IMG/VR virus record: IMGVR_UViG_3300025864_000001
Coordinates: 1-64,000 of that record
Reading direction: 5' to 3' (one strand)
DNA: 64,000 nt
Origin: a virus
In this document: piece after piece, positions 1 to 32,921 of the stretch
Numbering within the stretch: the stretch's first letter is position 1
How the letters are laid out: every line of letters begins with the position of its first letter
Notes under the pieces: model-generated
What the model saw: only the letters and a program-made list of their open reading frames with translations
What the model was told of the DNA's origin: nothing
Database searches by the model: none
Translations under genes and position numbers: made by a program

Positions 1-560
1 CCCATAGATTCCTTTATGATCTGTGTGTGATTGGAATATTCCCATGTTCCTGATACTGCACCTGTTGGCTGTCCTGATCCTTCAGAGAAGGCACTGGATA
101 TAATCACAATTTCTTCTCCTGCGGTGAGTGCGGGGAACTGGTCGGTTATCTCATTGAGACGTACCGTTATTACCGGGGCTCCCGGAACGCCTACGTTTCT
201 GGTAATGACTATTCCTGTAACCTCATTTGGAAATAAGATTTCGTCATATAACCTAACATAAAAATTGTTATTAGAGTCAAGGTCAATCGGGTCAAGTGTA
301 AACGATATGTTTGCGCCCACTGCGGGTTGTGCAACATTAGCGAGAACATGAATAACCTCGTGAATATGATTGTCTTCAAAGTGTCCGTATGTGTCTTGTG
401 ATACCGGCAGTTCAAATCCCATGGATCTGATTAACTGAAAGTACGATGCTCCCTGATCTCCGAACCTGTTGAATAACACGTTCATTATCTCCGGCTTATG
501 AATATCAAAGCCTGATACGATATCTGAGGCATATATTTGAGCAATAGCTTCTGGTCCCAT
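1..560 (-). CDS. Major capsid protein, N-terminal part (runs off left edge; absent from ORF track)
   Basis: Manual translation from ATG at 560: MGPEAIAQIYASDIVSGFDIHKPEIMNVLFNRFGDQ...SAFSEGSGQPTGAVSGTWEYSNHTQIIKESM, open to the edge; EG..P...NxTQI.K pattern of HK97-type capsid proteins; follows terminase-portal-scaffold. Confidence 0.8.
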   Translation of the reverse strand, partial: MGPEAIAQIYASDIVSGFDIHKPEIMNVLFNRFGDQGASYFQLIRSMGFELPVSQDTYGHFEDNHIHEVIHVLANVAQPAVGANISFTLDPIDLDSNNNFYVRLYDEILFPNEVTGIVITRNVGVPGAPVITVRLNEITDQFPALTAGEEIVIISSAFSEGSGQPTGAVSGTWEYSNHTQIIKESM

Positions 561-1882: not shown

Positions 1883-4165
1883 TTACTGTGTTGGTGCGGG
1901 TACTTGCTGTTCTGCCGATTTCTGAATTATCCCAAGGCTACTATTAAGTCCGGCCAACTCCATATCTCTTTTGTGTTGTAACTGAGCATAACTCTCATCA
2001 ATCTGTTTTTTGGCTTCATATAATCTTATTGCATCATCCGTCTTAGCTTTTTGTAGAACTTGAGCTGCCTCAGATTTGAGTTTAATATCTCCCTGTTCCC
2101 GTTGTTTATCCAAGTCCATGTTCTCTCTCTGTAACTTTAGCTGTCTCTCTTTGTTCTTTTTGCTTTTATGGTTCAAAAATGCCTCTGCATATTTTAGACT
2201 TCCCGACTCCAAAAGTCTTTCTATCATCAAAAAGTCCGGTAACTCAATTCCGATTATCCCATCCCTATCAGGTGACATTGCTGTGATCGCTGCCTGACGG
2301 ATAACATCTTTTCGTTCCTTGGTCGGTTTTGCCTCATATTTGATGAAATAATCCGCATCCACGGCATCTGCACCAACGCTTATTATCTGCACTCCAATAG
2401 TCCCTATCACTGGCATATAGCCTGTATAAGCCTCTTTATCGTGCTTAATAAGCAGTTGCATCCTCAATGATATATTCTTTGCAGTTTGCTCTTTAATGGT
2501 CAGATAACCACTATAAATATATCGCAATGCGTTATTTGTGGCTGCCATAGCAATCTCTGATCCACCTACCGACTGTTCGGGATTTGGTGTTGAGGCATCA
2601 GCGATCTGACTTATACCCGTCATGTCACGTATGGCATTAGCATTAAAGTCCCATACGGCAATGAACTCGGTTAACTGTGGTCCAATACCTCCTATTAACT
2701 CCTGTATCGGTCTATAACCTCCCGGTGCGTTAGGTATTCCTCTATGCGTGGTGGACTTATATAGTAAGTCTCCGGTCTGTGTCAGTATCTTCAAAAGGTC
2801 TAACGGTTGTAACTTATTACCTCCCAGAGTCATGTTCTGTAATGCGGTAAACTCAATGGCAATACCTGAAGGTCTGGCTTTAGCAATAGCGTTTTGTAGT
2901 TTGAAATAAGCGAGTACCATCTGGTGTACGTGTGTCTCTGCAAGGCTTACAAGTGATCTGAATGGTAGTTTGTAAAGGTGATATGACAACTCCACTTCTT
3001 TCTTGCCCGGACGTGGCACGTCATACTGTAATCCAAAATCGTACGTGTAGTCAGTACCAATTATCCACTTGCATTTATAAACAACTTTTATGTCAAACTT
3101 ATCAGTCTTTTTCTTCTCAGTGTCATAAACGACTCCCCATTTCTCATCGTACATGTTCTCCGTGCCATCGGGTGATTTTCTCTTGGTCTTATAGGTGCTG
3201 TTTGTCGAACACCACTCCGAGTCCATCACATCAACCAAAGTGCCATCATAATTACCCGTATGGGCATCATCGTCATAAGTATAATTATCAAGACCGGGGC
3301 TGTACTGCCGTGCCAGTGCGATTAATTCACTTTCCGGTATGTCAGGATTGAGTTTACGAAGATCCGAGATAAGCACCTGTATGATCTCGCCTCCATATCC
3401 CATGTTTTTATGATTGTTGTGTTTTGAATATTGTCCTACAAAACAGGCAGGATCAACATACCGTACCCTTACTTTTTTGGTGTACTGATCGGTATAGTCT
3501 TTTGTGGCTAAGCAGTTTATCACGCACGCATCCCTGATGATCTGTTTCTTAATCTCTTTCCAGTCGGATATGTAGAACGTGTAATCAAGTCCCTGTTCAA
3601 TCTCTGTCTCTTTTGCGAGTTTAAATCCACCAGCTCCTTCGTATAGATTCAGTTCCTCCATTGACTCAGGGACATACTCTCCTGACCTGTCAATGCCCAT
3701 GGATTTATCAATATAATCAAGTATTTCTTTGAACTTCATCCGGTACTGCATGTCTAACTTAGCAGCCTCTTTTTCATCTGTACTGGAAGGATCAACGGCT
3801 GTGGCGACTACCTGATGATCGGTCTGCTCCATCATGCCCTCAACGACTCTTAGAAACTTAGGAAGGATTGAAGGGATGTCCCAATTGATGTTCATGTAGC
3901 CTGTCATGGCTGCATTGGGATCGGCTATGTCGAGTAGTATTTTCTGATATTGTCTGACGCTCTGTCTGCCATCTGCCAACTCCCGTAATGCCGCAAACTC
4001 ACTTACGCTACTGAATGGTATTGCAGAATTTTTCCCTTGTTTATAACGAGCATACATGGCTTCACACCACTTCTTTCCCCATTTTTCATTCTTGTCAGCA
4101 GGGTTTATGTCATCCTTTGGGAAAGGATACCCGCCTTTGGTGTATGATTCGAGTGAGAATGCCAT
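1883..4165 (-). CDS. Portal protein
   Basis: 760 aa directly after TerL; YMNINWDIPSILPKF and IRDMTGI motifs and C-terminal coiled coil typical of crAss-like portals. Confidence 0.85.
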   Translation of the reverse strand: MAFSLESYTKGGYPFPKDDINPADKNEKWGKKWCEAMYARYKQGKNSAIPFSSVSEFAALRELADGRQSVRQYQKILLDIADPNAAMTGYMNINWDIPSILPKFLRVVEGMMEQTDHQVVATAVDPSSTDEKEAAKLDMQYRMKFKEILDYIDKSMGIDRSGEYVPESMEELNLYEGAGGFKLAKETEIEQGLDYTFYISDWKEIKKQIIRDACVINCLATKDYTDQYTKKVRVRYVDPACFVGQYSKHNNHKNMGYGGEIIQVLISDLRKLNPDIPESELIALARQYSPGLDNYTYDDDAHTGNYDGTLVDVMDSEWCSTNSTYKTKRKSPDGTENMYDEKWGVVYDTEKKKTDKFDIKVVYKCKWIIGTDYTYDFGLQYDVPRPGKKEVELSYHLYKLPFRSLVSLAETHVHQMVLAYFKLQNAIAKARPSGIAIEFTALQNMTLGGNKLQPLDLLKILTQTGDLLYKSTTHRGIPNAPGGYRPIQELIGGIGPQLTEFIAVWDFNANAIRDMTGISQIADASTPNPEQSVGGSEIAMAATNNALRYIYSGYLTIKEQTAKNISLRMQLLIKHDKEAYTGYMPVIGTIGVQIISVGADAVDADYFIKYEAKPTKERKDVIRQAAITAMSPDRDGIIGIELPDFLMIERLLESGSLKYAEAFLNHKSKKNKERQLKLQRENMDLDKQREQGDIKLKSEAAQVLQKAKTDDAIRLYEAKKQIDESYAQLQHKRDMELAGLNSSLGIIQKSAEQQVPAPTQ

Positions 4166-4189
4166 TTGTCTCAGATATTTTCAGTAAAG

Positions 4190-6511
4190 TTAATATTTTC
4201 TCATTGAACTGTAATCCCTTTTAGTCAAATAACTATCAAGGGTGAACTCCTTCTCATTCAACTCGGCAATCTCATCGTACAATCCACGAGTACCAATTAG
4301 TGCGTATCCGGCTGCTGTAAATAGGTCGTAATTAGTCATGTCTTCGGGTCCGTCAATGTCCCTGCATTCCTCCAATATCTCTATGTGAGTTTCTTCATCA
4401 GCCTCATTCTCAATCCATGTCATGTACTCGGTGAAAATATCCTGTTTAGTCCTGTTTGCGGTGTCTCCGGGAGTGACGCTTATCTTGAAAGTGTTCGGGT
4501 CTATCTTGTAAAGAAGATATCCCTCAAATCCCCTGTCACGAAAGTAGTCCCAAAGGAATGGCACATCTATCTCAGGGAACATCGGCACTCCAAAGTATAT
4601 GCACATCATCAGCATATCCTCACCATAAATGTTTTTGTCAAATGTTCTCTGAGCATAGGTGCAGGCAAACTTCCGCTTCATGGAGAAATTACCGTCTTTT
4701 ATCATGCCTTTCTTAACAACGGCACCACCTCCTTTTGACTTGCGGTTACCTTTGGTTATGTTGAATTTGAACGGGTCGCCTCCTGCCACTCCCCAATGCG
4801 AGTTACCAGGTTTGCGTGTTTGTTCTTCATCACTCCAAAAACTCTTATTCGATTCGCTTTCGTTTAGCTGGTGGCTTATCCTGAACTTACCCTGTGGATT
4901 GGCTGTGAATATCACCCTGCTATCACGTATATTGTCCTTCCAACTCATATTGCCTACTGCAATATCCTGCCTTGCCATAGACAGGTTATCAATATAGGTT
5001 TCAAGTTTATTCATATTAAACCCTGATGACTTAGATGCCGTTCTGAAACACTCTGTAAATCGGGTAGGATAAAGCCTTATTTCTTCTGATAGCGATTCCT
5101 GATCGTCAACGAATGCCTTGCGCCTGTTAAACAGAAACTCCTTTGCGCCGACCTGCCTATTGACATATTCAGAGTGTTCGGCTATCAACGTGTTTATGAT
5201 CCTATTGCTTTGTTTATCAGCAGACTCTAACCTGTCATAAGCAATATATTTCGATTGTTCTTTTGTCGGGGTGTTTATAATACTATTACCATGCTTGTCA
5301 ATAAACCCTTCCAACCCATCGTAGGCAGGAATGAATAATGTAGCGAGTCCTGATCTGGTCTGCCCGTTCTGTGTACGTTCATAGAATTTACTCATCATAC
5401 ACTGGTGCTTAAATGCCTTGCCTCCACCCTTCTCCATCTCCCCTACCGTGGATGTCTTAACAGTAAATCCAATTATCTTTGCTCCAATAGAAAGACATTC
5501 TTTTACAACGGTGTGCCTGTCCCAGCACGACAATCCTTTTTTAAGTTTCCCCACCTCATCATCGTGATGAAAATACAACTTATCACCATCATAAGCTGAG
5601 GCATCGGCCATCTCATAATTGATGCTCGATTCAAGTCCAAGTTCTGATGTTGCTAATGCACCACGTGATGAAAGTCTTTTCGCCGGAGGAGAAAATGATA
5701 GTTCGGTTTTTGGAGACGTTGACCCTTCATAGTTAGGTTTGAAGAAGAATGGTAATTTTTTCCATGGTGCTACAAGATGTCTGAGAAAGCATTTGCGAGC
5801 CTGTATGTCATTCATGGACTGTATGCCTCCGAATGCTGCCATCGTGCGTGAGATGATCTCATAGCCGATACACTCAGCCTTATATGTTGCACCTTCACGT
5901 CTGTGTTTTGGGTAATTGAACCCGTAAAATAACCTTCTTCCAAAGTCCACCCAGATGTATTTCCCGTGTTTATCCTGCACCGCAAAGCCATCACTATTGA
6001 CCCTTGGTGCCTTTGCCTCAGTGTAGATATAACGTGCAAATAGAAAGAATCTCCTGTCCCTGTCTCTGTATTCTGGTAATCCGGTGTCTATCTTCCACCA
6101 TCCGCAATAGAAATAGTGCCATCCGTCAATGTATGTAGGTACGCCATTATTGTAAAACCAATAACCATAAAGCCTCCTGTCCCATTGTGTTTTAATAAAA
6201 TCAATCTCCTCAGTATAGATGTCCTTGTGATCTTCTAACTCCTCCCATATCTCATCAAGAGTCTCAAACTTGATCTGCAGTTCCTTTAATCGTTTTGGTA
6301 GTTTTGGAGGATGCCATATTTGTTCACTGGCAGGAAGTCCCCAATTATCTATCAGGTGTGGTTCTGGTGGCTCTGGCAGTGGCAGCAATATCGGTATAAG
6401 GTCTTTGTCATCGGTATTCACCCATACACCTTTCTCTGCATCCTCATACTGCGCGAGTATCTGAGCATCAACTTCTTTATAGTAGCGTTTTAAGAGTGCG
6501 AGATGATTCAT
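4190..6511 (-). CDS. terL: Terminase large subunit
   Basis: KHRREGAT Walker A, HHDDEVGK Walker B, TST coupling motif, FIPAY, GGDPF and C-terminal D of the RNase H nuclease; start taken at the ATGA overlap with the upstream gene. Confidence 0.9.
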   Translation of the reverse strand: MNHLALLKRYYKEVDAQILAQYEDAEKGVWVNTDDKDLIPILLPLPEPPEPHLIDNWGLPASEQIWHPPKLPKRLKELQIKFETLDEIWEELEDHKDIYTEEIDFIKTQWDRRLYGYWFYNNGVPTYIDGWHYFYCGWWKIDTGLPEYRDRDRRFFLFARYIYTEAKAPRVNSDGFAVQDKHGKYIWVDFGRRLFYGFNYPKHRREGATYKAECIGYEIISRTMAAFGGIQSMNDIQARKCFLRHLVAPWKKLPFFFKPNYEGSTSPKTELSFSPPAKRLSSRGALATSELGLESSINYEMADASAYDGDKLYFHHDDEVGKLKKGLSCWDRHTVVKECLSIGAKIIGFTVKTSTVGEMEKGGGKAFKHQCMMSKFYERTQNGQTRSGLATLFIPAYDGLEGFIDKHGNSIINTPTKEQSKYIAYDRLESADKQSNRIINTLIAEHSEYVNRQVGAKEFLFNRRKAFVDDQESLSEEIRLYPTRFTECFRTASKSSGFNMNKLETYIDNLSMARQDIAVGNMSWKDNIRDSRVIFTANPQGKFRISHQLNESESNKSFWSDEEQTRKPGNSHWGVAGGDPFKFNITKGNRKSKGGGAVVKKGMIKDGNFSMKRKFACTYAQRTFDKNIYGEDMLMMCIYFGVPMFPEIDVPFLWDYFRDRGFEGYLLYKIDPNTFKISVTPGDTANRTKQDIFTEYMTWIENEADEETHIEILEECRDIDGPEDMTNYDLFTAAGYALIGTRGLYDEIAELNEKEFTLDSYLTKRDYSSMRKY

Positions 6512-7233
6512 ATCGTAATCCAATATTTGCAATTCACATCATCTGTTTGTACCGGAAGTCCGGGAAACCAATCTGCAGGAAACACTGCCTTTGCCTTAGA
6601 TAGCCATGCACCCCACCAACTGAATGTACTATTTGAACCTATGATGTATTCTGCTTTTGTCAGTAAATAAAAATCTTCTATTGGGGTATTGCTTACATAT
6701 TCAAAATCTTCTTTTATGGTGTCTTTTGCTTTTTGTAAGTCATCAGTGATAACAATTACTTTCCTGTCCGGCAATCTCTTTAATGCCTCCATATAATACG
6801 CCTGACTCATATTATTAAATCCCATTGCAAGATACTGAGGTGCGTAGTTACGGCAATGAAGCAATACACAATCCTTATATGGCGTCTCCCCCCTGTCTTT
6901 TAGCGTGAAATAATGCCTGATCAAATCTGTACAATGTTCAAAATACTTTTCTGACTGCATATATCCCCAAATAGATGAATTATCCGGTATGTTGAATCCC
7001 AAGAAGTTCCCTTCCGGTATCTCCACGTTCTGATAGTTTCCGGGAATTACGGGTGGCAATGGATTGACAAAATAATCCTGATTATTCCATGCCGGAAAAC
7101 CATATGAATAACCATTCTTTACAGCGATACCTATTGTCGAGGCAATAAAAAACAAAATATTACCAAAAGTATTGTCTCCTCTTTGGTCTGCTTTTGGTCG
7201 GTTATTAAACCATTCGTTCCTAAATGTTACCAT
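6508..7233 (-). CDS. Alpha-1,2-fucosyltransferase-like (GT11)
   Basis: FGNILF, GYMQSEKYF, HCR (HxR), SNSTFSWWGAWL motifs of GT11. Confidence 0.9.
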   Translation of the reverse strand: MVTFRNEWFNNRPKADQRGDNTFGNILFFIASTIGIAVKNGYSYGFPAWNNQDYFVNPLPPVIPGNYQNVEIPEGNFLGFNIPDNSSIWGYMQSEKYFEHCTDLIRHYFTLKDRGETPYKDCVLLHCRNYAPQYLAMGFNNMSQAYYMEALKRLPDRKVIVITDDLQKAKDTIKEDFEYVSNTPIEDFYLLTKAEYIIGSNSTFSWWGAWLSKAKAVFPADWFPGLPVQTDDVNCKYWITI

Positions 7234-7847
7234 GGTTTTAGATATAATGCGTCCCCCCATGTTTTCGGGGTATTGTCTGTTAATACTCTGGCAAATCCAA
7301 ACTCTTTCAAAAAGTTATCAAGATCACCTACAAGACAACACCCTTTATAAACTTCTTCAAAGTTAACTTCTGTATAGATAATATCAATGGATGAAAGTGT
7401 TTCGACTGCTCCTTTAAAAACCTCAAGTTCATATCCCTGAACGTCAATATTGATCATGTTATAGAATTTCCTTTGATAGGCAATGTCGTCTAACTTGCAA
7501 ACTTTCACAGTCTCTTTTTTATCAAAGACTATTTCAGGATATTGCTTTAAATGAGTCCCCGGTTCGAGCAATGAACAACTCTGCCCTTTATTAATCGTCT
7601 CTACAAACATTTCTTTTTCACCTACTTCATTCCCAAGGGCTATGTTGAATATCCGTATGTAATCATCTATGGCTATCCTACGATGTAATTCATCACAGTT
7701 CGCAGCGATTGGTTCAAAGAAAATCATGTTCTTAATGCCTTGTTTTTTATAATCCTCATACTCCTCGCCATAATGAGCTCCAATATGCAATACACCTCGT
7801 ATATTCAGATTAAAGTCTTTTACTATTTTATCAAGTTTTATAAGCAT
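7227..7847 (-). CDS. FkbM-family methyltransferase
   Basis: HIGAHYG, FEP, NIDVQGYELEVFKG, WGDALY. Confidence 0.9.
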   Translation of the reverse strand: MLIKLDKIVKDFNLNIRGVLHIGAHYGEEYEDYKKQGIKNMIFFEPIAANCDELHRRIAIDDYIRIFNIALGNEVGEKEMFVETINKGQSCSLLEPGTHLKQYPEIVFDKKETVKVCKLDDIAYQRKFYNMINIDVQGYELEVFKGAVETLSSIDIIYTEVNFEEVYKGCCLVGDLDNFLKEFGFARVLTDNTPKTWGDALYLKPW

Positions 7848-8377
7848 TTTGCAACAAGTATATCGTTTGGATAAAAAATATTCAGATTGTAATCATAACC
7901 ATCTTCAAATGTGAAAACATAACTCGGATTTATTTCCTCTATTTTTTTTATTAAATCAGAGGTGTCAAATCCACGTGTTGCTTTGTGCCATCCACGAAGG
8001 TCATCAATCAATATGGTATGTGTCTTTATGGGATGTTCTTTTATTTCATCCAACTCTTGTAAAAGTGGTGAATTGACCCTTCCTACGGCCGTCCCTACTC
8101 CGCAATAATGACCATCAAGCCAAAAAGTTATCGGAACTGTAATGTTATTTATGACTTTTGATAATTCATTTGAAGAATCGCCTTGTATCAAAATAACTTT
8201 ACTATTATTTATAAATCTTTTTGCACATTGCTCGTGAAGTTCCAAGGATAGTTCAATAGAATAAACCATATTAAATCCCTCATCTAATGCTTGCTGCACG
8301 CCATCCCCATGAAATGTTCCCGTCTCGACGAAAACCGGGTTAGAATACTTTTTAAACAATCCTTTACTTGCTGACAT
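7838..8377 (-). CDS. Class I SAM-dependent methyltransferase-like protein
   Basis: FVETGTFHGDG, SIEL, GDS, FWLDGH, ILIDD. Confidence 0.75.
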   Translation of the reverse strand: MSASKGLFKKYSNPVFVETGTFHGDGVQQALDEGFNMVYSIELSLELHEQCAKRFINNSKVILIQGDSSNELSKVINNITVPITFWLDGHYCGVGTAVGRVNSPLLQELDEIKEHPIKTHTILIDDLRGWHKATRGFDTSDLIKKIEEINPSYVFTFEDGYDYNLNIFYPNDILVAKCL

Positions 8378-8960
8378 TGGTATAACGATTAAAATGATTA
8401 ATGATCTGAGTGTAATCTACGTTCATTTCCTCTATATCTGAAAATCCGGGTCTTTGTGTTGCCACAAGTGGACTAACAATAAAACAATTAAATTTTTCCT
8501 GCACCTCTGTAAAGTAAAACACATCAAGCGTATTACGTTCCAATGAACTCCTAAAAAAACGATCGCAATTATTGAGAATATAATCCACAACCCTTTCGGA
8601 ATTATAGATTATCGCATGTGCGCAATAGGCACCCCTGAGTCTGAATAGATTTTCGGAATATTTTTTAATGGGTTGCATTAATGTTGCTCCAAGGTATAAT
8701 AAGTCCCAATCATCTGGCAATTGGCTCATTGCATTTACTACTACTTCCCATGGATGCAATAATACACAGTCATCCTCAAATATGATAAATGGAAATTCAT
8801 TTTCTATGGCGAGTATAGTGAGTTGCGATTCGGTGCATCCCTGCCATCCTGGGTTTGTCTTAATAGCATTAAACCGTTCAACTTCAAAAGGAAATATGTT
8901 TCCTTGGAACTCAATCATCCTATCAGGTCTGCTTTCAAGATTTATTACATACGCTTTCAT
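8364..8960 (-). CDS. Glycosyltransferase family 25
   Basis: YVINLESRPDR, GC..S, IFEDD, WDLLYLG, Q..GFSDI. Confidence 0.9.
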   Translation of the reverse strand: MKAYVINLESRPDRMIEFQGNIFPFEVERFNAIKTNPGWQGCTESQLTILAIENEFPFIIFEDDCVLLHPWEVVVNAMSQLPDDWDLLYLGATLMQPIKKYSENLFRLRGAYCAHAIIYNSERVVDYILNNCDRFFRSSLERNTLDVFYFTEVQEKFNCFIVSPLVATQRPGFSDIEEMNVDYTQIINHFNRYTNVSK

Positions 8961-10060
8961 AATTCTTGTGACCATTTTAAAAGTTCATTATAAGAGTGCT
9001 CATAGGTATAAAATGGTGCTCCTGACTCCAAATAAACATCATCACTCATCCCATATTCCTTTGCTTTAATGTATAGGCTCGTATTCGGTAGTACCCAAGC
9101 AATGTTTGGCCCATATTGAGTTATCCTGCTCCGAATCCTATTCTTTCGTGTCTCTTCTATATTCAGATACGTGTCGCCCGGTAATCCTACTAAAAATAGA
9201 CTCATTGTACTTATCCCTGCGTTCTCCGCAATCTCTACTCCTCTTAACATCTTTTCTACTGTGGTGTTTTTGCCCATTCGGTCAAGCGCATCCTGACTTA
9301 ATGATTCAATACCAAAATGTACTTTTCTACATCCGGCACGATATAGTTCTACGGCAAGTTCTTCATCCATGGATTCGGCACGTCCTACACACTGCCACTT
9401 CATTTCTCCGTCAAGTGATGAACATATCTCAAAGACTCTTTTTTTATTTGCGGTGAAATTATCATCATAAAATATCCATGTCTTATATCCCTCTGATTTG
9501 CGTTTTTCTATTTCGAGTATTACATTTTCGGCTGAACGCATCCGGTATGTATGACCCCAAAATTCAGTTGACCCACAAAAGTTACACTGAAACGGGCATC
9601 CTCTTGATGATATTACAGGGATGCCTTGTGTGCCATAGAATTTTAATCCAGTGTAATCAGGAAGCGGAATTTCATTTATCCCATAGAAATATTTATGGTC
9701 GCAATTACTCACAATGTCTGATTCGTTTCCCTGAATGATATCAATAATCGCATTCTCTCCCTCTCCTGCCACAACCTGATCGTAACCTATGATTAACATT
9801 TGATTGGGCAATGCTGATGGGTGATGTCCTCCACAAATTAGTTTCCCCTTAAACTTATCCCTTATCTGTCTGGCGTATTTTACCGAAAAACTATGAAACG
9901 AAACTGCTACCAAATCATAACTCTCGGTATCAATCATTGCATCGGGCAAGTCTTTTACCACAACATCAACTTTCCAATGCTTTAGTGTAGCTTGTAGATA
10001 GCCGATTGAAGGTGGTGGAAATTCCCCTGTTTCCCATGGATTGATAAGTAGTACTCTCAT
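8957..10060 (-). CDS. B12-binding radical SAM protein (class B methyltransferase-like)
   Basis: N-terminal cobalamin domain (LLINP..PPSIGY, GGHHPS, GEGE) plus SRGCPFQCNFC, DDNF, GIES, GLPGDT; true start MRVLLINP at 10060. Confidence 0.9.
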   Translation of the reverse strand: MRVLLINPWETGEFPPPSIGYLQATLKHWKVDVVVKDLPDAMIDTESYDLVAVSFHSFSVKYARQIRDKFKGKLICGGHHPSALPNQMLIIGYDQVVAGEGENAIIDIIQGNESDIVSNCDHKYFYGINEIPLPDYTGLKFYGTQGIPVISSRGCPFQCNFCGSTEFWGHTYRMRSAENVILEIEKRKSEGYKTWIFYDDNFTANKKRVFEICSSLDGEMKWQCVGRAESMDEELAVELYRAGCRKVHFGIESLSQDALDRMGKNTTVEKMLRGVEIAENAGISTMSLFLVGLPGDTYLNIEETRKNRIRSRITQYGPNIAWVLPNTSLYIKAKEYGMSDDVYLESGAPFYTYEHSYNELLKWSQEL

Positions 10061-10062
10061 AA

Positions 10063-10695
10063 TCAAAAATCTGTATGCCCATCTGGAATGTGACAAACAT
10101 AGTATTGTGGTGTTGGAATCTTTGCACACTCTTTTGGTAATAGATGTTTTACTATCATGCCCCAATCATGCCCATATCCGTCACCCCATTTTACATTAAG
10201 ACTTTTTTTATGTGCAATAGAACTCGTTCCTATGCGTCCGAGTGCAAGTAAGTTATGACGTTCATCTTTGACTGAATGATCTGCACTCCGAACAACATAG
10301 TCATTGTAATACACCCAATCGTATTTCTCCGTGTTGAAATTCTCGTCAATGATTGCAAGGTGTGATTTGCCAAACATGTCATCATGGTCCAGATAGCATA
10401 TTATCTCGCCTTTTGCCATCTCAATTCCGGTTTGACGTACCACTCCGCTAAACGATTCTTGTTTAGCTATTTTTTTAAACCGGATTCTGGGGTGTGATGA
10501 AAACTCCTCATTATAGATGCGTTCTGCTTCATCACAACCGTCTGCTATAATGATTAACTCGTTATTCGGGTGGAGTTGATGCATGACTGACATTATTGCC
10601 CTGATGAACTTCTCTTCCGGATTTGATGCACTCTGGTTATTCCCCCATGTAGTATAGCCGCCAAGATACACTGGCATGATGACTGATATTCTCAT
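10063..10695 (-). CDS. Glycosyltransferase family 2
   Basis: ISVIMPVY, ELIIIADG, R..GI..AKGEIICYLDHDD. Confidence 0.9.
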   Translation of the reverse strand: MRISVIMPVYLGGYTTWGNNQSASNPEEKFIRAIMSVMHQLHPNNELIIIADGCDEAERIYNEEFSSHPRIRFKKIAKQESFSGVVRQTGIEMAKGEIICYLDHDDMFGKSHLAIIDENFNTEKYDWVYYNDYVVRSADHSVKDERHNLLALGRIGTSSIAHKKSLNVKWGDGYGHDWGMIVKHLLPKECAKIPTPQYYVCHIPDGHTDF

Positions 10696-11327
10696 TAGTC
10701 TTTCAGGTATTGGTCAAAGTTAAGCAGATGTCCCCATACATCACTTATTCCCTCTCTTTGGTACACAAGTCTGGGATTAAAGATATAACAGGGATGCGCT
10801 GCCTGTATATCGGTTAAGATAACATCTCCATTACGAGTAATCACTTCCGGTTTAAATAGTTCAAGTATGAAGTTATATGCTCTCTCATGTATGCCTATTG
10901 CGTGTACATAGTACGCACGTGTGACCCGATTGATATTTGCCGTTACCGGAATAGGCTTATGGACATTTTGCCCTCCTAAGTACAGTAAATTCCAATCCTC
11001 TGGTACCTGCCGTATGCACCTGTCAAACAACTCCACAAAATTCTCATGGAATACCGCATCATCTTCAAAGAATAGAAAGTTTTTTAATCCAAGTTCTTTT
11101 GCCTCTTTCACGGCATTATACATGGTCTGGATTGTACCTATAACACCAACATTGAAGTTACCTGGTTCGCATGGCAGATTATATGGGTTGCCATAGACAA
11201 GTCCTTTAAATCGTTCTGCTACAATCCCAAATTTGGCTATCTCTTCTGTGAATTGAGCCAATCGGTCAGTCCTGTGATCGCAATTAGTGAAAATTGCTTT
11301 GTCGAAAAAAGTATTCACGGTAATCAT
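10695..11327 (-). CDS. Glycosyltransferase family 25 (second copy)
   Basis: N..HRTDR, FFEDD, WNLLYLGG, QREGISD. Confidence 0.85.
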   Translation of the reverse strand: MITVNTFFDKAIFTNCDHRTDRLAQFTEEIAKFGIVAERFKGLVYGNPYNLPCEPGNFNVGVIGTIQTMYNAVKEAKELGLKNFLFFEDDAVFHENFVELFDRCIRQVPEDWNLLYLGGQNVHKPIPVTANINRVTRAYYVHAIGIHERAYNFILELFKPEVITRNGDVILTDIQAAHPCYIFNPRLVYQREGISDVWGHLLNFDQYLKD

Positions 11328-11941
11328 TTTTCTTTTACCTCCTGTGCTTTCTTTGCGTAGTCCTCTGGCCTTAATGCAAGTCGTTCATCCTCAACATAAC
11401 GCAGAATTTCATCCTTCAAATAAGGGTTATTGTCTTGGTTCAGTAATTCAAGTAAACTACTTTCAAGATCATCCCTGAGTTCTTTTGCTACACCTAATTT
11501 TTTGGTGTCACCTCCAATTATTTCGAGCATGAGGTTGTAATAACTGCTCTCGATTGCCACAAGATATGAGTACTTAAAACTCCGGTGCATACGTACAAAC
11601 TGCACGATCTTTTTATTCACAATATCATTTTTCCCTCTCAATATGTCTTCAATCGGGCTTTCAAAATTACCATCCTCGAGAGTTTTAAACTCCAGGTCAT
11701 GGACAATCTCTATTTTTCTTTTTAAGACATCATGGTATTTACCCCTGTAAGGACTCTTACTGTCGTACATCAGTATCACATAGCGATTTACCTTGTCATT
11801 GTCAATACCCTCTCCTGCACTTGCCTTAAACTCTCTTATTTTGCCCAATTCTTTAAAAAACTGCAATACAGTAGTCCCTTCCGGTATCTTATCTACATTG
11901 TACCGGAGTTGCTGATATTCACGTGGGTGAAATTGATTCAT
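11324..11941 (-). CDS. Hypothetical protein, possible terminase small subunit
   Basis: Helical 205-aa protein, first non-enzyme gene upstream of the glycan cluster and TerL; positional inference only. Confidence 0.3.
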   Translation of the reverse strand: MNQFHPREYQQLRYNVDKIPEGTTVLQFFKELGKIREFKASAGEGIDNDKVNRYVILMYDSKSPYRGKYHDVLKRKIEIVHDLEFKTLEDGNFESPIEDILRGKNDIVNKKIVQFVRMHRSFKYSYLVAIESSYYNLMLEIIGGDTKKLGVAKELRDDLESSLLELLNQDNNPYLKDEILRYVEDERLALRPEDYAKKAQEVKEK

Positions 11942-13221
11942 AAGAATAGCCCTATTTCGTTATAAACTCTTTTTTCTGCGATGTCAATGTACTTCGGATT
12001 AAGTTCTATCACTGCATAGTTTCGATTTAGTTTGCGTGATACTAATCCTGTGGTATTTGCTCCTCCAAATGGATCTAATACTAATCCTCCTTCGGGACAT
12101 CCTGCTTTAATACAATCAACTATTAATTCTTCAGGAAATGTTGCAAAGTGAGCTCCTTTAAATGGTTTTGTAGGTACATCCCAAACAGATCTCTTGTTTG
12201 CTTTACCATCGCCTATAAAATTGCCATTAGAATCATAATTTCCTGAATGCCCTGTAAGTGTTTGATCTCCCGTTCCTCTGTGTTTATATCCCTTAAATCC
12301 TTTCTCTCTTCCATTTCGATGAATAGTCCCATGAGATCCTTTTGCAGTATCCCATCCGTCAGGAGTTTTATACTGTTTTATAATTCTCCCTTTGTTATTA
12401 TCAGGGGGACGCCCATCTATTTCCCATGCGCCTGGACTCCCAATAGGAGCTCGTAAATCATCTGGGTAAATTATTGGTGTTTTTATAGCCTCCGCATCAT
12501 AATAATATTTCGATGATTTGCTTAATAGAAAAAAATATTCATGCGCTTTTGTCGGTCTGTCTGTTACTGATTCCGGCATTGGATTTCTTTTATACCAGAT
12601 ATTATCCATTCTTAAATACCAACCATCAGCACGTAACGCAAAGGCAAGCATCCATGGTATTCCGATCAAATCTTTAGGTTTTAAATCACTTCTTTTAAGA
12701 TTTCGTGTTATTCCTTCACTTGCATAACCTCTTTCTGTTCGTGGTTTACCAAAATTAGTTGCTGTCTCTGATTGACCACTTGCGCCACCGCCACCAAAAT
12801 AAGAATCTCCCATATTTACCCAAAGAGTGCCATCGTCCCTGAGTGTACGTTTTGCCTCTCTGAAAATATCTACAAGATGCTTTATGAATAGTTCAGGTGA
12901 TGGTTCTGATCCAAGTTCGCCTCTCCATGCACCACACTCTGAACAAAAGTCACTCTTAGTTGGTACGTCACGTCCAATTGTTCCAATATTTGTTAGTTGT
13001 TTTGTGTTTTGACCTTTATTATCATTACTTCTCCTTTGATATGATTTATCAACCCATTCATGTTGACAATTTTCATCACCATCCCAAATAACCGGAGTAG
13101 TGCCGTATGCTCTGAGTCCGTAATACGGAGGACTTGTAACAATCGTGTTGAATATTTTACTCTCGAATGTTTTTAGAACAGACAGAGCATGACCTTCGTA
13201 TATTTTGTTTACTTCAATCAT
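11938..13221 (-). CDS. DNA N4-cytosine/N6-adenine methyltransferase (beta class)
   Basis: TSPPY, HFATFP, VLDPFGG motifs; large insertions. Confidence 0.92.
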   Translation of the reverse strand: MIEVNKIYEGHALSVLKTFESKIFNTIVTSPPYYGLRAYGTTPVIWDGDENCQHEWVDKSYQRRSNDNKGQNTKQLTNIGTIGRDVPTKSDFCSECGAWRGELGSEPSPELFIKHLVDIFREAKRTLRDDGTLWVNMGDSYFGGGGASGQSETATNFGKPRTERGYASEGITRNLKRSDLKPKDLIGIPWMLAFALRADGWYLRMDNIWYKRNPMPESVTDRPTKAHEYFFLLSKSSKYYYDAEAIKTPIIYPDDLRAPIGSPGAWEIDGRPPDNNKGRIIKQYKTPDGWDTAKGSHGTIHRNGREKGFKGYKHRGTGDQTLTGHSGNYDSNGNFIGDGKANKRSVWDVPTKPFKGAHFATFPEELIVDCIKAGCPEGGLVLDPFGGANTTGLVSRKLNRNYAVIELNPKYIDIAEKRVYNEIGLFL

Positions 13222-13913
13222 ATCTTTGCCAATAAATTGCGTCTCTGTACCCGATAATACTTCGCTCCACCATCAATCTTGGCATGTAAATCGTATTGAA
13301 GTGGGATATCATTAGTTTTTCGTATCACCACCACGTCACCGACTGCAATATCCACACCCTCATCACTTGCGTTTTCATCAACATATCTCCGGTTCGGAAC
13401 TCCCATATACTTCACCCTGCCAAAAATCACTTCATTGCTATTGCGCTTATCCCCGATCTCTACCATCTCCAATCCTATCTTTTTCATTATCTCTCTCTGG
13501 CGTGTCACCTCTGGATTTTCGCATGGTTCAATCAATACATAACCATTTATCGGAATGATGTGACCATTGCGTACAAGTGCGTAAATAAACTGGTATGGGA
13601 TAAGCACATATCGCTCACCATCCTCAATGAAATAACGACCTTCTTTTGGCTTTAAAGCGTTTACTATCGAAAGATAATAGACAATCACACCATCACCCAT
13701 CTTTGCTTCCATTGGTGTCTGCCATGGCATGCCCTTATTTGCCTCACCCGAATAATACAGATGTGATGGCAGTCCCCAAATTGTTCCGGTCACTGTTGTG
13801 TGTCGTTCTGGATCAAAGGACGTATCAATAAACAATCCCTTTACAGTATCATTCTCCGCATCGAGTTTGATCATTACCAGATTATTTAGAGTTCTTTTAG
13901 TTTCCATAGTCAT
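13218..13913 (-). CDS. Tandem GroES-like co-chaperonin
   Basis: Two Cpn10-like repeats (TLNNLVMIK..GT..GDGV and PINGYVLIEP..GRVKYMG..VGDVV..LLAKI). Confidence 0.7.
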   Translation of the reverse strand: MTMETKRTLNNLVMIKLDAENDTVKGLFIDTSFDPERHTTVTGTIWGLPSHLYYSGEANKGMPWQTPMEAKMGDGVIVYYLSIVNALKPKEGRYFIEDGERYVLIPYQFIYALVRNGHIIPINGYVLIEPCENPEVTRQREIMKKIGLEMVEIGDKRNSNEVIFGRVKYMGVPNRRYVDENASDEGVDIAVGDVVVIRKTNDIPLQYDLHAKIDGGAKYYRVQRRNLLAKI

Positions 13914-13916
13914 ATT

Positions 13917-14747
13917 TTAAACATCACACGCATCAGTACAATTACCCCATAGTGTCCCTTGATTCTCATTGAAAATTACTTCTCTCAATGGTTTTAGTGA
14001 GTCGTGCAGATATATTCTTGACTTAATCCCTTTCATACTTGAATCCCGTATAGCCTCATCGACCTGACAGGCAGTCTCAAAATCTTGAGGTTCTGTGGTT
14101 TTCAATCTAATCCAATTCTGATCTGATTGGAATGGACAAAAGGTACATGATGATTTTTCTGGGACCGGTAAATTTTTTTCTTTATACCAGTTTAAAACAT
14201 CATTTCGGGTCATTATCAAAGAATCTATTTTTTCGCATTTAGCATCTGCATAAATTTTATATCCACAGAATGGATAAACATTAATTTTCCATTTCTCCTG
14301 TGGAATCTTCATACGGTGAGCCTCATCTAAAGTTATTCCCTGATATATTTCAATCTTAGGATAACGACTACGCCCGGGCAATGCCAATATCTCTCTGATC
14401 TTTTTATTAACCATCGCTATCTTATACTCATTGGTACATTGACGACGAAGCATACCCTTTTCTCCATTATTCATCGTAAATGCAGGAATAGAAGCAAACC
14501 GATTACCTGATGAATTGGTCTGATTTAATAAGTCTTTTTTTAGATTTTTATAATCTGCCTTATAAAGCGGGATACCTTCATGCTCCTGTTCCCATTTTAA
14601 AAGCAATTCGTAATATACGAGTGTTCTTGTTTTTTCTCCTCCGGTATCTGAAAATACTGCATAGTCACATCTCTCTACCTCACCAAGAGAACTCATGTAA
14701 TATAATGCTGAACTTTGCACACCAACTCCCAAACTAATTATTTTCAT
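13917..14747 (-). CDS. PAPS-reductase-like / adenine nucleotide alpha-hydrolase family protein
   Basis: ISLGVGVQS PP-loop variant, DTGGE, RQCT..YKI, KSSCTFCPF. Confidence 0.75.
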   Translation of the reverse strand: MKIISLGVGVQSSALYYMSSLGEVERCDYAVFSDTGGEKTRTLVYYELLLKWEQEHEGIPLYKADYKNLKKDLLNQTNSSGNRFASIPAFTMNNGEKGMLRRQCTNEYKIAMVNKKIREILALPGRSRYPKIEIYQGITLDEAHRMKIPQEKWKINVYPFCGYKIYADAKCEKIDSLIMTRNDVLNWYKEKNLPVPEKSSCTFCPFQSDQNWIRLKTTEPQDFETACQVDEAIRDSSMKGIKSRIYLHDSLKPLREVIFNENQGTLWGNCTDACDV

Positions 14748-15559: not shown

Positions 15560-15641
15560 ATGCCAAACCCTCCTAAGTACTCGACAAAGGAGGGCATGCT
15601 ATGAAAAAAGAAAAGCAGAATTGTGCAATCGGCATTTGCAC
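15560..15641 (-). ncRNA. Candidate small RNA / structured leader with anti-AUGAAAAAAG seed
   Basis: TATCTTTG box at 15646-15653, 5' hairpin GTGCAA/TTGCAC, single-stranded TCTTTTTTCATAGC, 3' hairpin CCCTCCT/AGGAGGG. Confidence 0.5.
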
Positions 15642-31721: not shown

Positions 31722-32921
31722 TTACCTTATTTCTTCTATATTTCCGACTTGAGCCGTGAATGTTCCTGAGCTACAAATCACTGTTAGATTTATATACCAA
31801 ATTCCTGATATAGTAATTGCAGGAGTAGTGGGTGCTGCCACATAAGTTGGTAATTGAACTGCTCCGGCATAGCCAACTCCCTCTGCTTTAATTGTGGTTG
31901 CTGACCGGATAGTTATTAATACATCAAATCCCGCCCTCGCATTTGCCGCCTGTGCTGCTGACGTTACCGCCGTCCAATCAATTGTATCAGAGATTGTCCC
32001 TAAATTCCCGCATCTTACTTTAAATATCAATGTACCTGTTGACGATGAATTACCAATGATCCATGCTCGGAAAGTTGATCCTACACTTGCACGTGCTGCT
32101 GGTATTTGTAATTGAAGTAATACCTTTTCAGTTGTGCCGGAAGTAACCACCGGAGCCAATAAATTTGCAAATAGCCTTACAGGGGCGTCAGTCCCATTTT
32201 GTCCGGGAACTCCTTGATCCCCTTTATCTCCTTTTAATCCATCAAAATAGTCAATATTTTTAACAGGGGTATTACCGGGAATACCTTGTATGCCCTGATC
32301 TCCTTTAAGTCCTTGCGAACCATCATTGCCGGGCAAACCTTGATCTCCCTTGTCTCCTTTTGAACCCGGAGTCCCAGGAGCACCGTCTTCTCCATTGAAA
32401 TAATCAACATTAAGCACAGGAGTACGCCCATCTTCTCCGTCCGCGCCTGCCTGCCCTGTTGCACCATCATTACCAGGGATGCCCTGCATGCCTCGTGAAC
32501 CCGACTGTCCTGCCTCCCCATTTGTACCATTTTCACCTTTAAGGGATAATAACCATTCCGATTCTATCCCCGTAAAACCATTCTCAACTGCTACCTGATA
32601 TGCTGACTTACCATCAGTAGACGGAATTTGATCTGCAATAGTGGCAATCTGTTCCGGGGTCAACTCAACTGCAGGCGGTGGTATTTGCGCAGCAATCTCC
32701 ATTATCACAGCAGGCACCACGGATAATGCTATTTCTGCTATATGCCCAAGTAGATTAATAACACCCCAGCTACCACGAGGAATCTGAGCCGATGCTGTGC
32801 CAATAACAACATCTCCGAGATTAGCAAAATCAAATGAGTCTTTCTTTGTGGCATGTAGCTTAACCGGATCACCAATTTTGATCGCACGTCCAGAAGCGTT
32901 TAGAAGTCTTTTCTGTGCCAC
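31722..32921 (-). CDS. Collagen-like (G-X-Y) fibre protein
   Basis: G-X-Y runs, DGKSAYQVAVENGF, TPV.N.DYF repeats; TACCTTTG box at 32941-32948. Confidence 0.85.
   Translation of the reverse strand: MAQKRLLNASGRAIKIGDPVKLHATKKDSFDFANLGDVVIGTASAQIPRGSWGVINLLGHIAEIALSVVPAVIMEIAAQIPPPAVELTPEQIATIADQIPSTDGKSAYQVAVENGFTGIESEWLLSLKGENGTNGEAGQSGSRGMQGIPGNDGATGQAGADGEDGRTPVLNVDYFNGEDGAPGTPGSKGDKGDQGLPGNDGSQGLKGDQGIQGIPGNTPVKNIDYFDGLKGDKGDQGVPGQNGTDAPVRLFANLLAPVVTSGTTEKVLLQLQIPAARASVGSTFRAWIIGNSSSTGTLIFKVRCGNLGTISDTIDWTAVTSAAQAANARAGFDVLITIRSATTIKAEGVGYAGAVQLPTYVAAPTTPAITISGIWYINLTVICSSGTFTAQVGNIEEIR

Follow-up and report, generated by a model that had tools for sequence, protein, structure and literature searches.

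A seven-gene sugar cassette beside the terminase gene of a crAss-related peat phage lies in a hypervariable island and is a candidate virion glycosylation system

What does a set of sugar-building enzymes do when its genes are joined to the DNA packaging genes of a phage? The question is raised by a stretch of 64,000 nucleotides of viral DNA (IMG/VR virus record IMGVR_UViG_3300025864_000001, positions 1 to 64,000; hereafter the window). In it, seven co-directional genes on the minus strand (11327-6508) encode glycosyltransferases, methyltransferases and a radical S-adenosylmethionine (SAM) enzyme and run into the terminase gene TerL. A reading made from the sequence alone had proposed that they build a fucosylated, methylated glycan on virion proteins. 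We found that the cassette is intact and that it is one allele of a hypervariable island, located at a fixed recombination hotspot between TerL and the gene for a conserved 205-residue protein, h205. Virion glycosylation is the best reading of the cassette. It is unproven, and we give it nearly an even chance.

The seven genes, in order of transcription, are:

10695-11327, minus strand: GT25a, a GT25-like glycosyltransferase of the GT-A type
10063-10695, minus strand: GT2, a family-2 glycosyltransferase with a D-H-D-D motif
8957-10060, minus strand: rSAM, a radical SAM enzyme that starts at the ATG at 10060 and not at an upstream TTG
8364-8960, minus strand: GT25b, a second GT25-like glycosyltransferase, 32% identical to GT25a
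7838-8377, minus strand: MT179, 179 residues, with a predicted class I SAM-methyltransferase fold
7227-7847, minus strand: an FkbM-family methyltransferase (PF05050)
6508-7233, minus strand: a short GT11-like protein of 241 residues, of the fucosyltransferase superfamily

We read the open reading frames (ORFs) and their junctions directly. The genes for h205 and GT25a overlap by ATGA, GT25a and GT2 share one nucleotide (TAATG), GT2 and rSAM are separated by a gap of 2 nucleotides, and rSAM and GT25b overlap by ATGA. Longer overlaps follow, of 14 nucleotides between GT25b and MT179, 10 between MT179 and FkbM, and 7 between FkbM and the GT11-like gene, which itself overlaps TerL by ATGA. The tight packing and the coupling to TerL that had been described were therefore confirmed. 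All of the genes tested are under purifying selection. Pairwise ratios of nonsynonymous to synonymous substitution rates (dN/dS) against orthologues were between 0.04 and 0.27, with GT25a at 0.035 and TerL at 0.06 for comparison; dS was saturated in these comparisons. Based on these ratios the cassette genes are not decayed, a possibility that had been raised against the proposal.

The position of the cassette turned out to be a hotspot. A TerL-based scan of IMG/VR yielded 68 related loci with the backbone h118-h231-h205-X-TerL-portal-405aa-capsid, where X is the interval that holds the cassette in the window. In 28 related loci, h205 was either directly upstream of an island or abutted TerL, and the h205-TerL gap ranged from 4 nucleotides to 9.4 kb. 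X was 4-44 nucleotides in nine loci, and elsewhere it was 3.1, 3.4, 4.0, 6.5-6.9, 7.4, 8.4-8.6 or 9.4 kb. The genes inserted at this junction were all co-directional. We collected 190 island ORFs, which formed 79 clusters, and the cluster representatives that could be annotated were mostly glycan enzymes. These included many GT2, GT2_4 and GT92-like glycosyltransferases and one GT10 fucosyltransferase, a 4,6-dehydratase (Polysacc_synt_2), a DegT aminotransferase, a sugar C-methyltransferase, an LbH hexapeptide acyltransferase, CmcI/Methyltransf_24 O-methyltransferases fused to GT2, and a set consisting of FabH, MaoC and an ORF the size of an acyl carrier protein (ACP). In most relatives the first gene of the island encodes a DUF8361 protein and the last a short GT2. 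Among the 190 ORFs, including those of the window's cassette, six had one marginal hydrophobic segment and none was polytopic.

Islands have been gained, lost or exchanged repeatedly. In the TerL tree, basal lineages have no island, and island-free loci are also scattered through the crown clade, indicating at least 4-5 changes of island state. The nearest TerL relative of the window (L003, 88% identical) carries an entirely different island. Since relatives hold nothing or quite different sugar genes at this place, the cassette is a swappable accessory island. Synteny of the cassette beside terL in related genomes had been named as a check. One other locus, L086, has all seven genes in the identical order, and the hypervariability of the place had been missed. 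The variation may also exist within single samples. In two peat sequencing runs (X1 and X2) the summed depth of contigs over window positions 4000-13500 was higher on TerL and h205 than on the island, about 2-fold in X1 and several-fold in X2. Contigs diverged at 11333, the border of h205 and GT25a, and had loose ends at 11333 and 11101. This excess of depth, together with the divergence at 11333, suggests that strains with the same backbone and other islands coexist in the peat samples, although contig data call for caution.

Several other island genes deserve mention. DUF8361 proteins (PF27674) are about 207 residues long and almost purely viral. They are encoded, for example, at L003:870-1493, L005:3219-3848 and L010:3412-4047, and 10 others are in the same alignment (A1). 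They have invariant His, Cys, Lys, His-x-Lys and F-S-G-N-F-W-W motifs, and some islands have two copies. They had no match in our local copy of Pfam, and the idea that they (cluster C0) are divergent GT25 enzymes was rejected (hhalign probability 0.2%). We also considered DUF6734 as an initiating transferase. It had no sequence match in PDB, and it is not tied to the island because it is found in relatives that have none. Islands of some relatives (L011:3280-8676, L035:2634-7127, L027:1397-5963 and L015:84-2356) encode a FabH-like ketosynthase, a MaoC dehydratase, an ACP-sized ORF of 77-86 residues, a hexapeptide acyltransferase and a DegT aminotransferase, and after these a fusion of methyltransferase and GT2. 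From its gene content, this set resembles a pathway to an amino sugar that is N-acylated and O-methylated.

Where did the window's allele come from? Judged from alignments, the cassette is a mosaic of two mobile sub-modules. DNA homology to L004 covers h205, GT25a and GT2, ends at the start of rSAM and resumes exactly at the start codon of TerL. The right half, rSAM-GT25b-MT179-GT11, is collinear with a sub-module of a complete, unrelated 52-kb phage (L070/G007; TerL phrog_2, portal phrog_7376), at 71-74% nucleotide and 61-79% amino acid identity. FkbM is missing from this otherwise collinear sub-module, and the breakpoints are at gene borders, as in a clean insertion or deletion. In G007 the sub-module is immediately upstream of a gene for a 151-residue protein, a small terminase gene of the Sf6 type, TerL and portal. 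A third locus, L086 (a 72.7-kb contig in a metagenome-assembled genome (MAG) bin of Prolixibacteraceae), has all seven genes in identical order between h205 and TerL at 63-96% amino acid identity, and L087, a 6-kb contig, has rSAM-GT25b-FkbM-GT11. From the contents of L070, L086 and L087, the conserved core would be rSAM, GT25b and the GT11-like enzyme with one or two methyltransferases.

Beyond the sub-module, the window phage and G007 have two notable genes in common and a few small ORFs (27-39% identity). One is an endolysin (63% amino acid identity). The other is a fibre tip: the C-terminal 152 residues of the window's collagen-like fibre are 93% identical (82% in nucleotides) to a domain that in G007 belongs to a 334-residue protein encoded right after portal. 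Because the sub-module, the fibre tip and the endolysin are common to both, these comparisons suggest that the two phages share a host and that modules facing the host were exchanged together. In L070, TerL (L070:12128-14581) is 817 residues long, compared with 480-493 residues for L073 and L076 of the same PHROG, and its PHROG match falls into two parts, residues 10-167 and 465-806, which suggests an intein or other large insertion.

The families of the cassette also recur elsewhere in phages. We took the contexts of rSAM homologues from scans of IMG/VR and GTDB. More distant homologues (52-59% identity) in other phages were upstream of TerL (L073), between portal and head genes (L076) and upstream of the prohead protease gene (L074), in the company of GT2/GT17-like transferases and an epimerase/dehydratase of the short-chain dehydrogenase/reductase (SDR) type. 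In 185,579 species genomes, rSAM relatives of at least 60% identity occurred only on MAG contigs of 2-73 kb with inconsistent taxonomy, a signature of phage contigs. From such distributions, the MT179, DUF8361, short GT11 and rSAM families appear to be largely virus-specific. In addition, we searched 50,697 phage records with the GT11-like protein, rSAM and GT25b (tblastn). Among cultured phages, short GT11 was found only in T4-like cyanophages (33% amino acid identity) and a remote rSAM only in Streptomyces phage SF3 (23.5%). Genes similar to GT25b were found in cyanophages (25-29%) and in uncultured huge phages. A 17-kb Riflebacteria MAG contig (L092) has five paralogous genes for B12-type radical SAM enzymes around a relative 41% identical to rSAM.

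Are the enzymes what they had been called? In profile searches the family names held for GT2, FkbM, the core of rSAM and the GT11-like protein, while both GT25 proteins were below the cut-off and MT179 was recognized only by its fold. Against the GT25 family of Pfam (PF01755, cut-off 24), GT25a scored 21.6 bits and GT25b 17.8 bits. A profile built from four sequences, GT25a, GT25b and two relatives (alignment A2), matched mimivirus R655 (9crz; E 6e-13, positions 5-181, full length) and, in its GT25 domain, the human enzyme procollagen galactosyltransferase 1 (ColGalT1; E ~1e-5), and an acidic, metal-binding E-D-D motif (E88-D89-D90) was invariant in the GT25 alignment. GT25a is 93% identical to its counterpart in L004 and 96% to that in L086. 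GT25b matches phrog_24091 (E 3.5e-12) and is 73% identical to the protein of the unrelated L070 and 93% to that of L086. GT2 was clear (PF00535, E 2.4e-11, 44.3 bits, cut-off 23.3; WcaA/TuaG-like in NCBIfam), it is 68% identical to the L004 protein and 63% to that of L086, and its match to a GtrB-like PHROG was only partial (E 1.6e-9).

The label of a B12 radical SAM enzyme was borne out in part. The radical SAM core of rSAM scored 84.4 bits (PF04055, cut-off 29.5), but the B12-binding domain (PF02310) scored 29.2 bits, below its cut-off of 32.1. The cysteines of the C-x3-C-x2-C motif (C155, C159 and C162) were invariant in 18 homologues, and the family comprises 787 homologues of about 367 residues. 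Identity was 86% to L086 and 75% to L070. The nearest solved relative is AprD4 (6fd2, E 7e-18), a radical SAM diol-dehydratase of apramycin biosynthesis. AprD4 has a domain of the cobalamin-binding type, yet it is not a methylase. GenK and GenD1 are class B (cobalamin) radical SAM C-methyltransferases of sugars. Since AprD4, the best solved relative, is a dehydratase that deoxygenates C3' of a sugar, B12-dependent methylation is one of two plausible chemistries for rSAM. From this resemblance, rSAM is probably a class-B-like enzyme that modifies a sugar carbon, either by C-methylation or by deoxygenation.

The FkbM protein was recognized by PF05050 (E 3.6e-16, 60.2 bits, cut-off 22.7), TIGR01444 (63 bits) and phrog_8156 (E 1e-26). 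MT179 had no sequence match in Pfam, PHROG or PDB. In the ESM Atlas it resembled clusters of class I SAM and FkbM methyltransferases in structure (template modelling (TM) scores of 0.83-0.86), and its own clusters there are 96-100% viral. MT179 is thus, by its fold, a predicted class I SAM methyltransferase, with homologues in the islands of L004, L048, L070 and L086. For the GT11-like protein, PF01531 (E 6.6e-11, 42.4 bits, cut-off 23.9) covered only the C-terminal third (residues 152-226), and phrog_2644 matched with E 1e-31. It belongs to a family of 511 homologues of about 240 residues, roughly 60 residues shorter than typical GT11 enzymes. A G-N motif, H-x-R (H126 and R128) and an NSTFSWW block are conserved in it. 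The motifs typical of GT11 are H-x-R-R-G-D and, near the C-terminus, S-x-F-S-W-W, and the R-G-D part of the first is replaced. Its AlphaFold model (predicted local distance difference test score (pLDDT) 92.9) had only fucosyltransferases as top Foldseek matches: NodZ, FUT8, AtFUT1 and POFUT1 (probability 0.97-1.0, TM ~0.5). The model thus supports a fucosyltransferase-superfamily fold, and in this respect the earlier assignment of the last enzyme was borne out.

The genome around the cassette bears on what it might modify. The window makes up the first 64 kb of a contig of 78,468 bp, which is a complete phage genome because its ends overlap (by about 128 bp); in IMG/VR it is likewise listed with direct terminal repeats and a completeness of 100%. 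The phage is uncultured, was contained only in sequencing runs from peat metagenomes and belongs to a clade of crAss-related peat phages. Its TerL and portal are of the type found in podophages of Cellulophaga, Flavobacterium and Maribacter (26-30% identity), and its host is probably a member of the Bacteroidota. Almost the entire circle is transcribed from the minus strand, in the order replication genes, DNA methylases, replication initiator, h141, h118, PAPS-reductase-like gene, h231, DNA methylase, h205, cassette, TerL, portal, 405-residue protein, capsid and tail. The genes next to the cassette are:

11938-13221, minus strand: a DNA N6/N4-methyltransferase (PF01555, E 1.2e-39), overlapping h205 by 4 nucleotides
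11324-11941, minus strand: h205, the left border of the island, a conserved, all-helical protein of 205 residues, overlapping GT25a by ATGA
4190-6511, minus strand: TerL, the right border of the island (phrog_6681, E 7e-72), overlapping the GT11-like gene by ATGA
1883-4165, minus strand: portal (phrog_6547, E 2.7e-63), the next gene of the array after TerL and collinear in all relatives

The protein h205 had no sequence match in Pfam, PHROG or PDB and its model (pLDDT 86.7) had no fold match; by position it is a candidate for the small terminase. The major capsid gene is in two frames at the terminal overlap (window 1-560, minus strand, and genome 77528-78468, or L001:15528-16468). The two 128-bp end copies differ from each other and the capsid frame is unbroken in every relative, and the split is most likely not a real frameshift but an error made in assembling the repeat.

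The claim that the cassette is not with the replication genes was wrong. An array without gaps or terminators runs from about 15536 and contains the PAPS-reductase-like gene, the DNA N6/N4-methylase, h231, h205, the cassette, TerL, portal and capsid, with a fragment of a C5-methylase further upstream. The coding strand had no terminator-like hairpin anywhere between position 15623 and the gene for the capsid. In a scan for sigma-70 promoters, a consensus that is not appropriate for Bacteroidota, matches were no commoner than in shuffled sequences. The DNA N6/N4-methylase is accessory cargo in this array, and in most relatives h231 adjoins h205 without it. The PAPS-reductase-like gene (13917-14747, minus strand) is, like the methylase at 11938-13221, an insertion compared with most relatives, in which h118, h231 and h205 are adjacent. 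A copy 78% identical to it is in the h205-TerL hotspot beside TerL in another locus (L033:9153-9998).

How would the cassette work if it glycosylates virions? Within the cytoplasm of an infected cell, soluble enzymes using nucleotide sugars of the host would put together a short oligosaccharide and decorate it. The three GT-A transferases (two GT25-like and one GT2) would add hexoses, the short GT11-like enzyme would add a 6-deoxy sugar of the fucose type, and the two SAM methyltransferases (MT179 and FkbM) would place O-methyl groups on the chain. The B12-type radical SAM enzyme might alter an unactivated sugar carbon by C-methylation or by a deoxygenation like that of AprD4. As the cassette is translationally coupled to TerL, we infer that it is made together with packaging and head proteins, and the acceptor would most likely be at least one virion protein, giving particles with a strain-specific sugar coat. 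In favor are the hotspot with its turnover, the mosaic structure with breakpoints at gene borders, the conserved gene set of L086, purifying selection, the solubility of the enzymes, the virus-specific families, and the lack of an integrase and of a route to DNA. Such cassettes also recur beside head and packaging genes in L070, L073, L074 and L076. In addition, some of the nearest proteins of known structure glycosylate proteins: for the GT25 pair these include ColGalT1 and R655, a putative protein glycosyltransferase (PMC9546862), and the fold matches of the GT11-like protein include POFUT1.

Other results weigh against virion glycosylation. The intact cassette of glycan-building and methylating enzymes, fused to packaging genes, is as had been proposed, but the acceptor was not found, although we examined Ser/Thr tags, differences in head genes and co-occurrence with collagen. 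There are no Ser/Thr-rich tags in the proteins of this phage. Head genes of relatives with and without an island gave no clue to an acceptor: the capsid and the 405- and 309-residue proteins of the head module are equally present in both. The phage does encode a collagen-like tail fibre (31722-32921, minus strand; 399 residues, about 33 G-X-Y triplets, PF01391 E 7e-16) with Lys and Thr in Y positions, which we considered as an acceptor for the GT25 enzymes. However, the complete phages G006 and G007, which have GT25, lack a collagen domain, as do eight further phage records that we tested, of which five are complete and three are 76-94% complete, and so the co-occurrence of collagen and GT25 is not supported. 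Within the clade of the window, relatives have neither the collagen part nor the fibre tip. Neither rSAM, GT25b nor the GT11-like protein had homology by tblastn to the proven enzymes of mycobacteriophages (GT25a, GT2 and the methyltransferases were not searched). Because at least nine relatives have no island at all, the island is dispensable for making particles. Finally, a DNA methylase and a PAPS-reductase-like gene share the uninterrupted array with the cassette, and a PAPS-reductase-like gene is inside the hotspot in L033, so the site may be a mere slot that is permissive for cargo. For the same reason the argument from a late transcript is weak. The array spans methylases, cassette, TerL and capsid, and position by itself cannot separate a virion target from a DNA target.

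It is possible, if rather unlikely, that the enzymes instead remodel a glycan of the host envelope, such as O-antigen, capsule or the undecaprenyl-phosphate-linked general O-glycan of Bacteroidota. Their substrates would be lipid-linked intermediates on the inside of the membrane, and the flippase and ligase of the host would export the product; the changed surface would block superinfection or stop progeny from sticking to dying cells. GT2 (WcaA/TuaG-like), GT25 and GT11 are classic soluble enzymes in the assembly of lipooligosaccharide, O-antigen and capsule, similar clusters of GT11, GT25 and GDP-fucose genes are in accessory regions of cyanomyophages, and the diversity of islands could mirror that of host surface glycans. 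A receptor-type fibre tip and an endolysin also accompany the sub-module when it passes from one phage to an unrelated one, and transfer with the fibre tip fits a role in masking receptors. The absence of flippase and GtrA/B genes had been taken as an argument against serotype conversion. We too found no flippase, polymerase or Gtr-type membrane protein in the window or in the 190 island ORFs of relatives, but this does not exclude action on a lipid-linked glycan of the host, because bacterial GT2, GT25 and GT11 enzymes are themselves soluble. What makes the envelope less attractive is that there is no lysogen to convert, since the complete genome has no match to the integrase family PF00589 and its crAss-like architecture is of the virulent type. 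Moreover, the families of the cassette are largely virus-specific and were not taken recently from bacteria, similar cassettes are found again and again within or next to the head and packaging genes, coupled to late genes, and the full pathways for rare acylated amino sugars in some relatives would be a high price for altering the host surface late in a lytic cycle. We consider it less probable still that the genes are generic cargo and that the target is a cytoplasmic protein of host or phage (such as a factor of defence or translation, which the sugar would inactivate) or a small molecule. The hotspot does take genes unrelated to glycans, such as the PAPS-reductase-like gene and others of no recognized function, a DNA methylase is one slot upstream between h231 and h205, the absence of an island in some relatives would fit, and B12 radical SAM enzymes also act on peptides and natural products. 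In contrast, some 20 different islands are consistently dominated by glycan genes. Known toxin and anti-defence transferases inactivate their targets with a single sugar, unlike the 3-6 transferases per island here, which imply assembly in several steps.

The least probable alternative, to which we give very little weight, is that the cassette adds a methylated glycan to phage DNA as a hypermodification against restriction, alongside the neighboring DNA methylases. It would explain why a DNA N6/N4-methylase and a PAPS-reductase-like gene come directly before the cassette in the array, with the C5-methylase fragment further upstream. Radical SAM enzymes act in the hypermodification of thymidine (PMC8989533), and, according to the passage of PMC12619734 that cites Pyle et al. 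2024, phage glycosyltransferases put diverse glycans on DNA. Known hypermodifications of thymidine and cytosine begin with hydroxymethylated bases (PMC8989533, PMC5889632). In the complete genome we found no ThyA-like hydroxymethylase, TET/JBP or TGT/DpdA enzyme; PF00303, PF12851 and PF01702 had no match, with positive controls for PF00303 and PF01702 and, for PF12851 (TET/JBP), a control that matched only 1 of 14 control genomes and below the cut-off. The ordinary adenine and cytosine methylases imply ordinary bases. Since the enzymes that provide a base hydroxyl are missing and ordinary methylases are encoded, a DNA target is unlikely. In addition, we know of no multi-enzyme pathway for rare sugars and no enzyme of the fucosyltransferase type that serves DNA.

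Virion glycosylation leads to a further notion, which we hold only tentatively and think somewhat unlikely as a whole. In a clade of crAss-related phages from soil and peat, the h205-TerL junction would be a 'glyco-serotype' locus, an equivalent in function of bacterial O-antigen loci that decorates the virion, in which content turns over far faster than the backbone and sub-modules, among them a virus-specific trio of rSAM, GT25 and GT11-like genes, are swapped along with fibre tips and endolysins by unrelated phages that share a host. If true, phages would have heritable, diversifying particle sugar coats, made partly by radical chemistry that is undescribed for viral glycans. Even with the host envelope or DNA as its target, the island would be a variable locus for interaction with the host, of a kind new for crAss-related phages.

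Glycosylation of phage virions as a general kind is already known from mycobacteriophages. What is new is a hotspot with presence, absence and swapping of content in a crAss-related clade, the mosaic origin of the window's allele, and a core of rSAM, GT25 and GT11-like genes that, from its distribution, is mobile and virus-specific. Among the papers searched we found none that links crAss-like phages with virion glycosylation and, to our knowledge, sugar-coated phage particles have been demonstrated experimentally for only a few mycobacteriophages. Close relatives with no island, this island or one of about 20 others at a single junction are natural variation, with which particle chemistry, stability, adsorption and host range could be compared in a straightforward way as soon as a member is in culture or the cassette has been expressed. 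The analysis also draws attention to MT179, DUF8361 and the short GT11-like transferase as three enzyme families that seem to occur almost only in viruses, and their conserved radical SAM partner may perform a new sugar modification.

How does the cassette compare with known systems? T4-like cyanophages also have GT11 and GT25 together in one accessory cluster. In Synechococcus phage ACG-2014f (KJ019107.1), genes for a GDP-mannose 4,6-dehydratase and an epimerase are followed just downstream by the GT11 homologue, with GT6 and GT25 in the same cluster. The cyanophage cluster differs in having its own GDP-fucose pathway, in being located among accessory genes of the photosynthesis type and not at the terminase, and in lacking a radical SAM gene. 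Giant viruses likewise have their own cytoplasmic glycosyltransferases and sugar methyltransferases. Capsid glycans of the chlorovirus PBCV-1 contain fucose and O-methylated rhamnose. Mimivirus has fibril glycans and the collagen-modifying enzymes L230, R699 and R655 (PMC9546862). R655 is the best solved relative of the GT25 pair, and the rare amino-sugar pathways in the islands of relatives are a likeness to Megavirinae. Giant viruses differ in their eukaryotic hosts, the activity of R655 is putative, and the window's collagen-like protein does not co-occur with GT25 in other phages. For rSAM the comparison is with AprD4, which acts on a sugar carbon and shares the two-domain layout. Identity between the two is low, and the phage enzymes are paired with an SDR epimerase/dehydratase or with GT25b and not with partners of the AprD3 type.

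The closest parallel in kind is with the mycobacteriophages Che8, Corndog and Myrna, whose virions are glycosylated according to the part of PMC12619734 that cites Freeman et al. 2023. This parallel had been drawn before; the coupling of glycosyltransferase genes to packaging genes supports it through the overlap with TerL, but as an analogy, with no homologue in any mycobacteriophage of the three enzymes searched. The window phage differs in that its host is probably among the Bacteroidota and not the Actinobacteria, that no C-terminal acceptor tags were seen, and that its genes, known from sequence alone, form an island that comes and goes, swaps content and includes a B12-type radical SAM enzyme. 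The two are alike in having soluble glycosyltransferases with methyltransferases in or beside the late structural genes, and in a glycan that would be built in the cytoplasm without genes for export on a lipid carrier.

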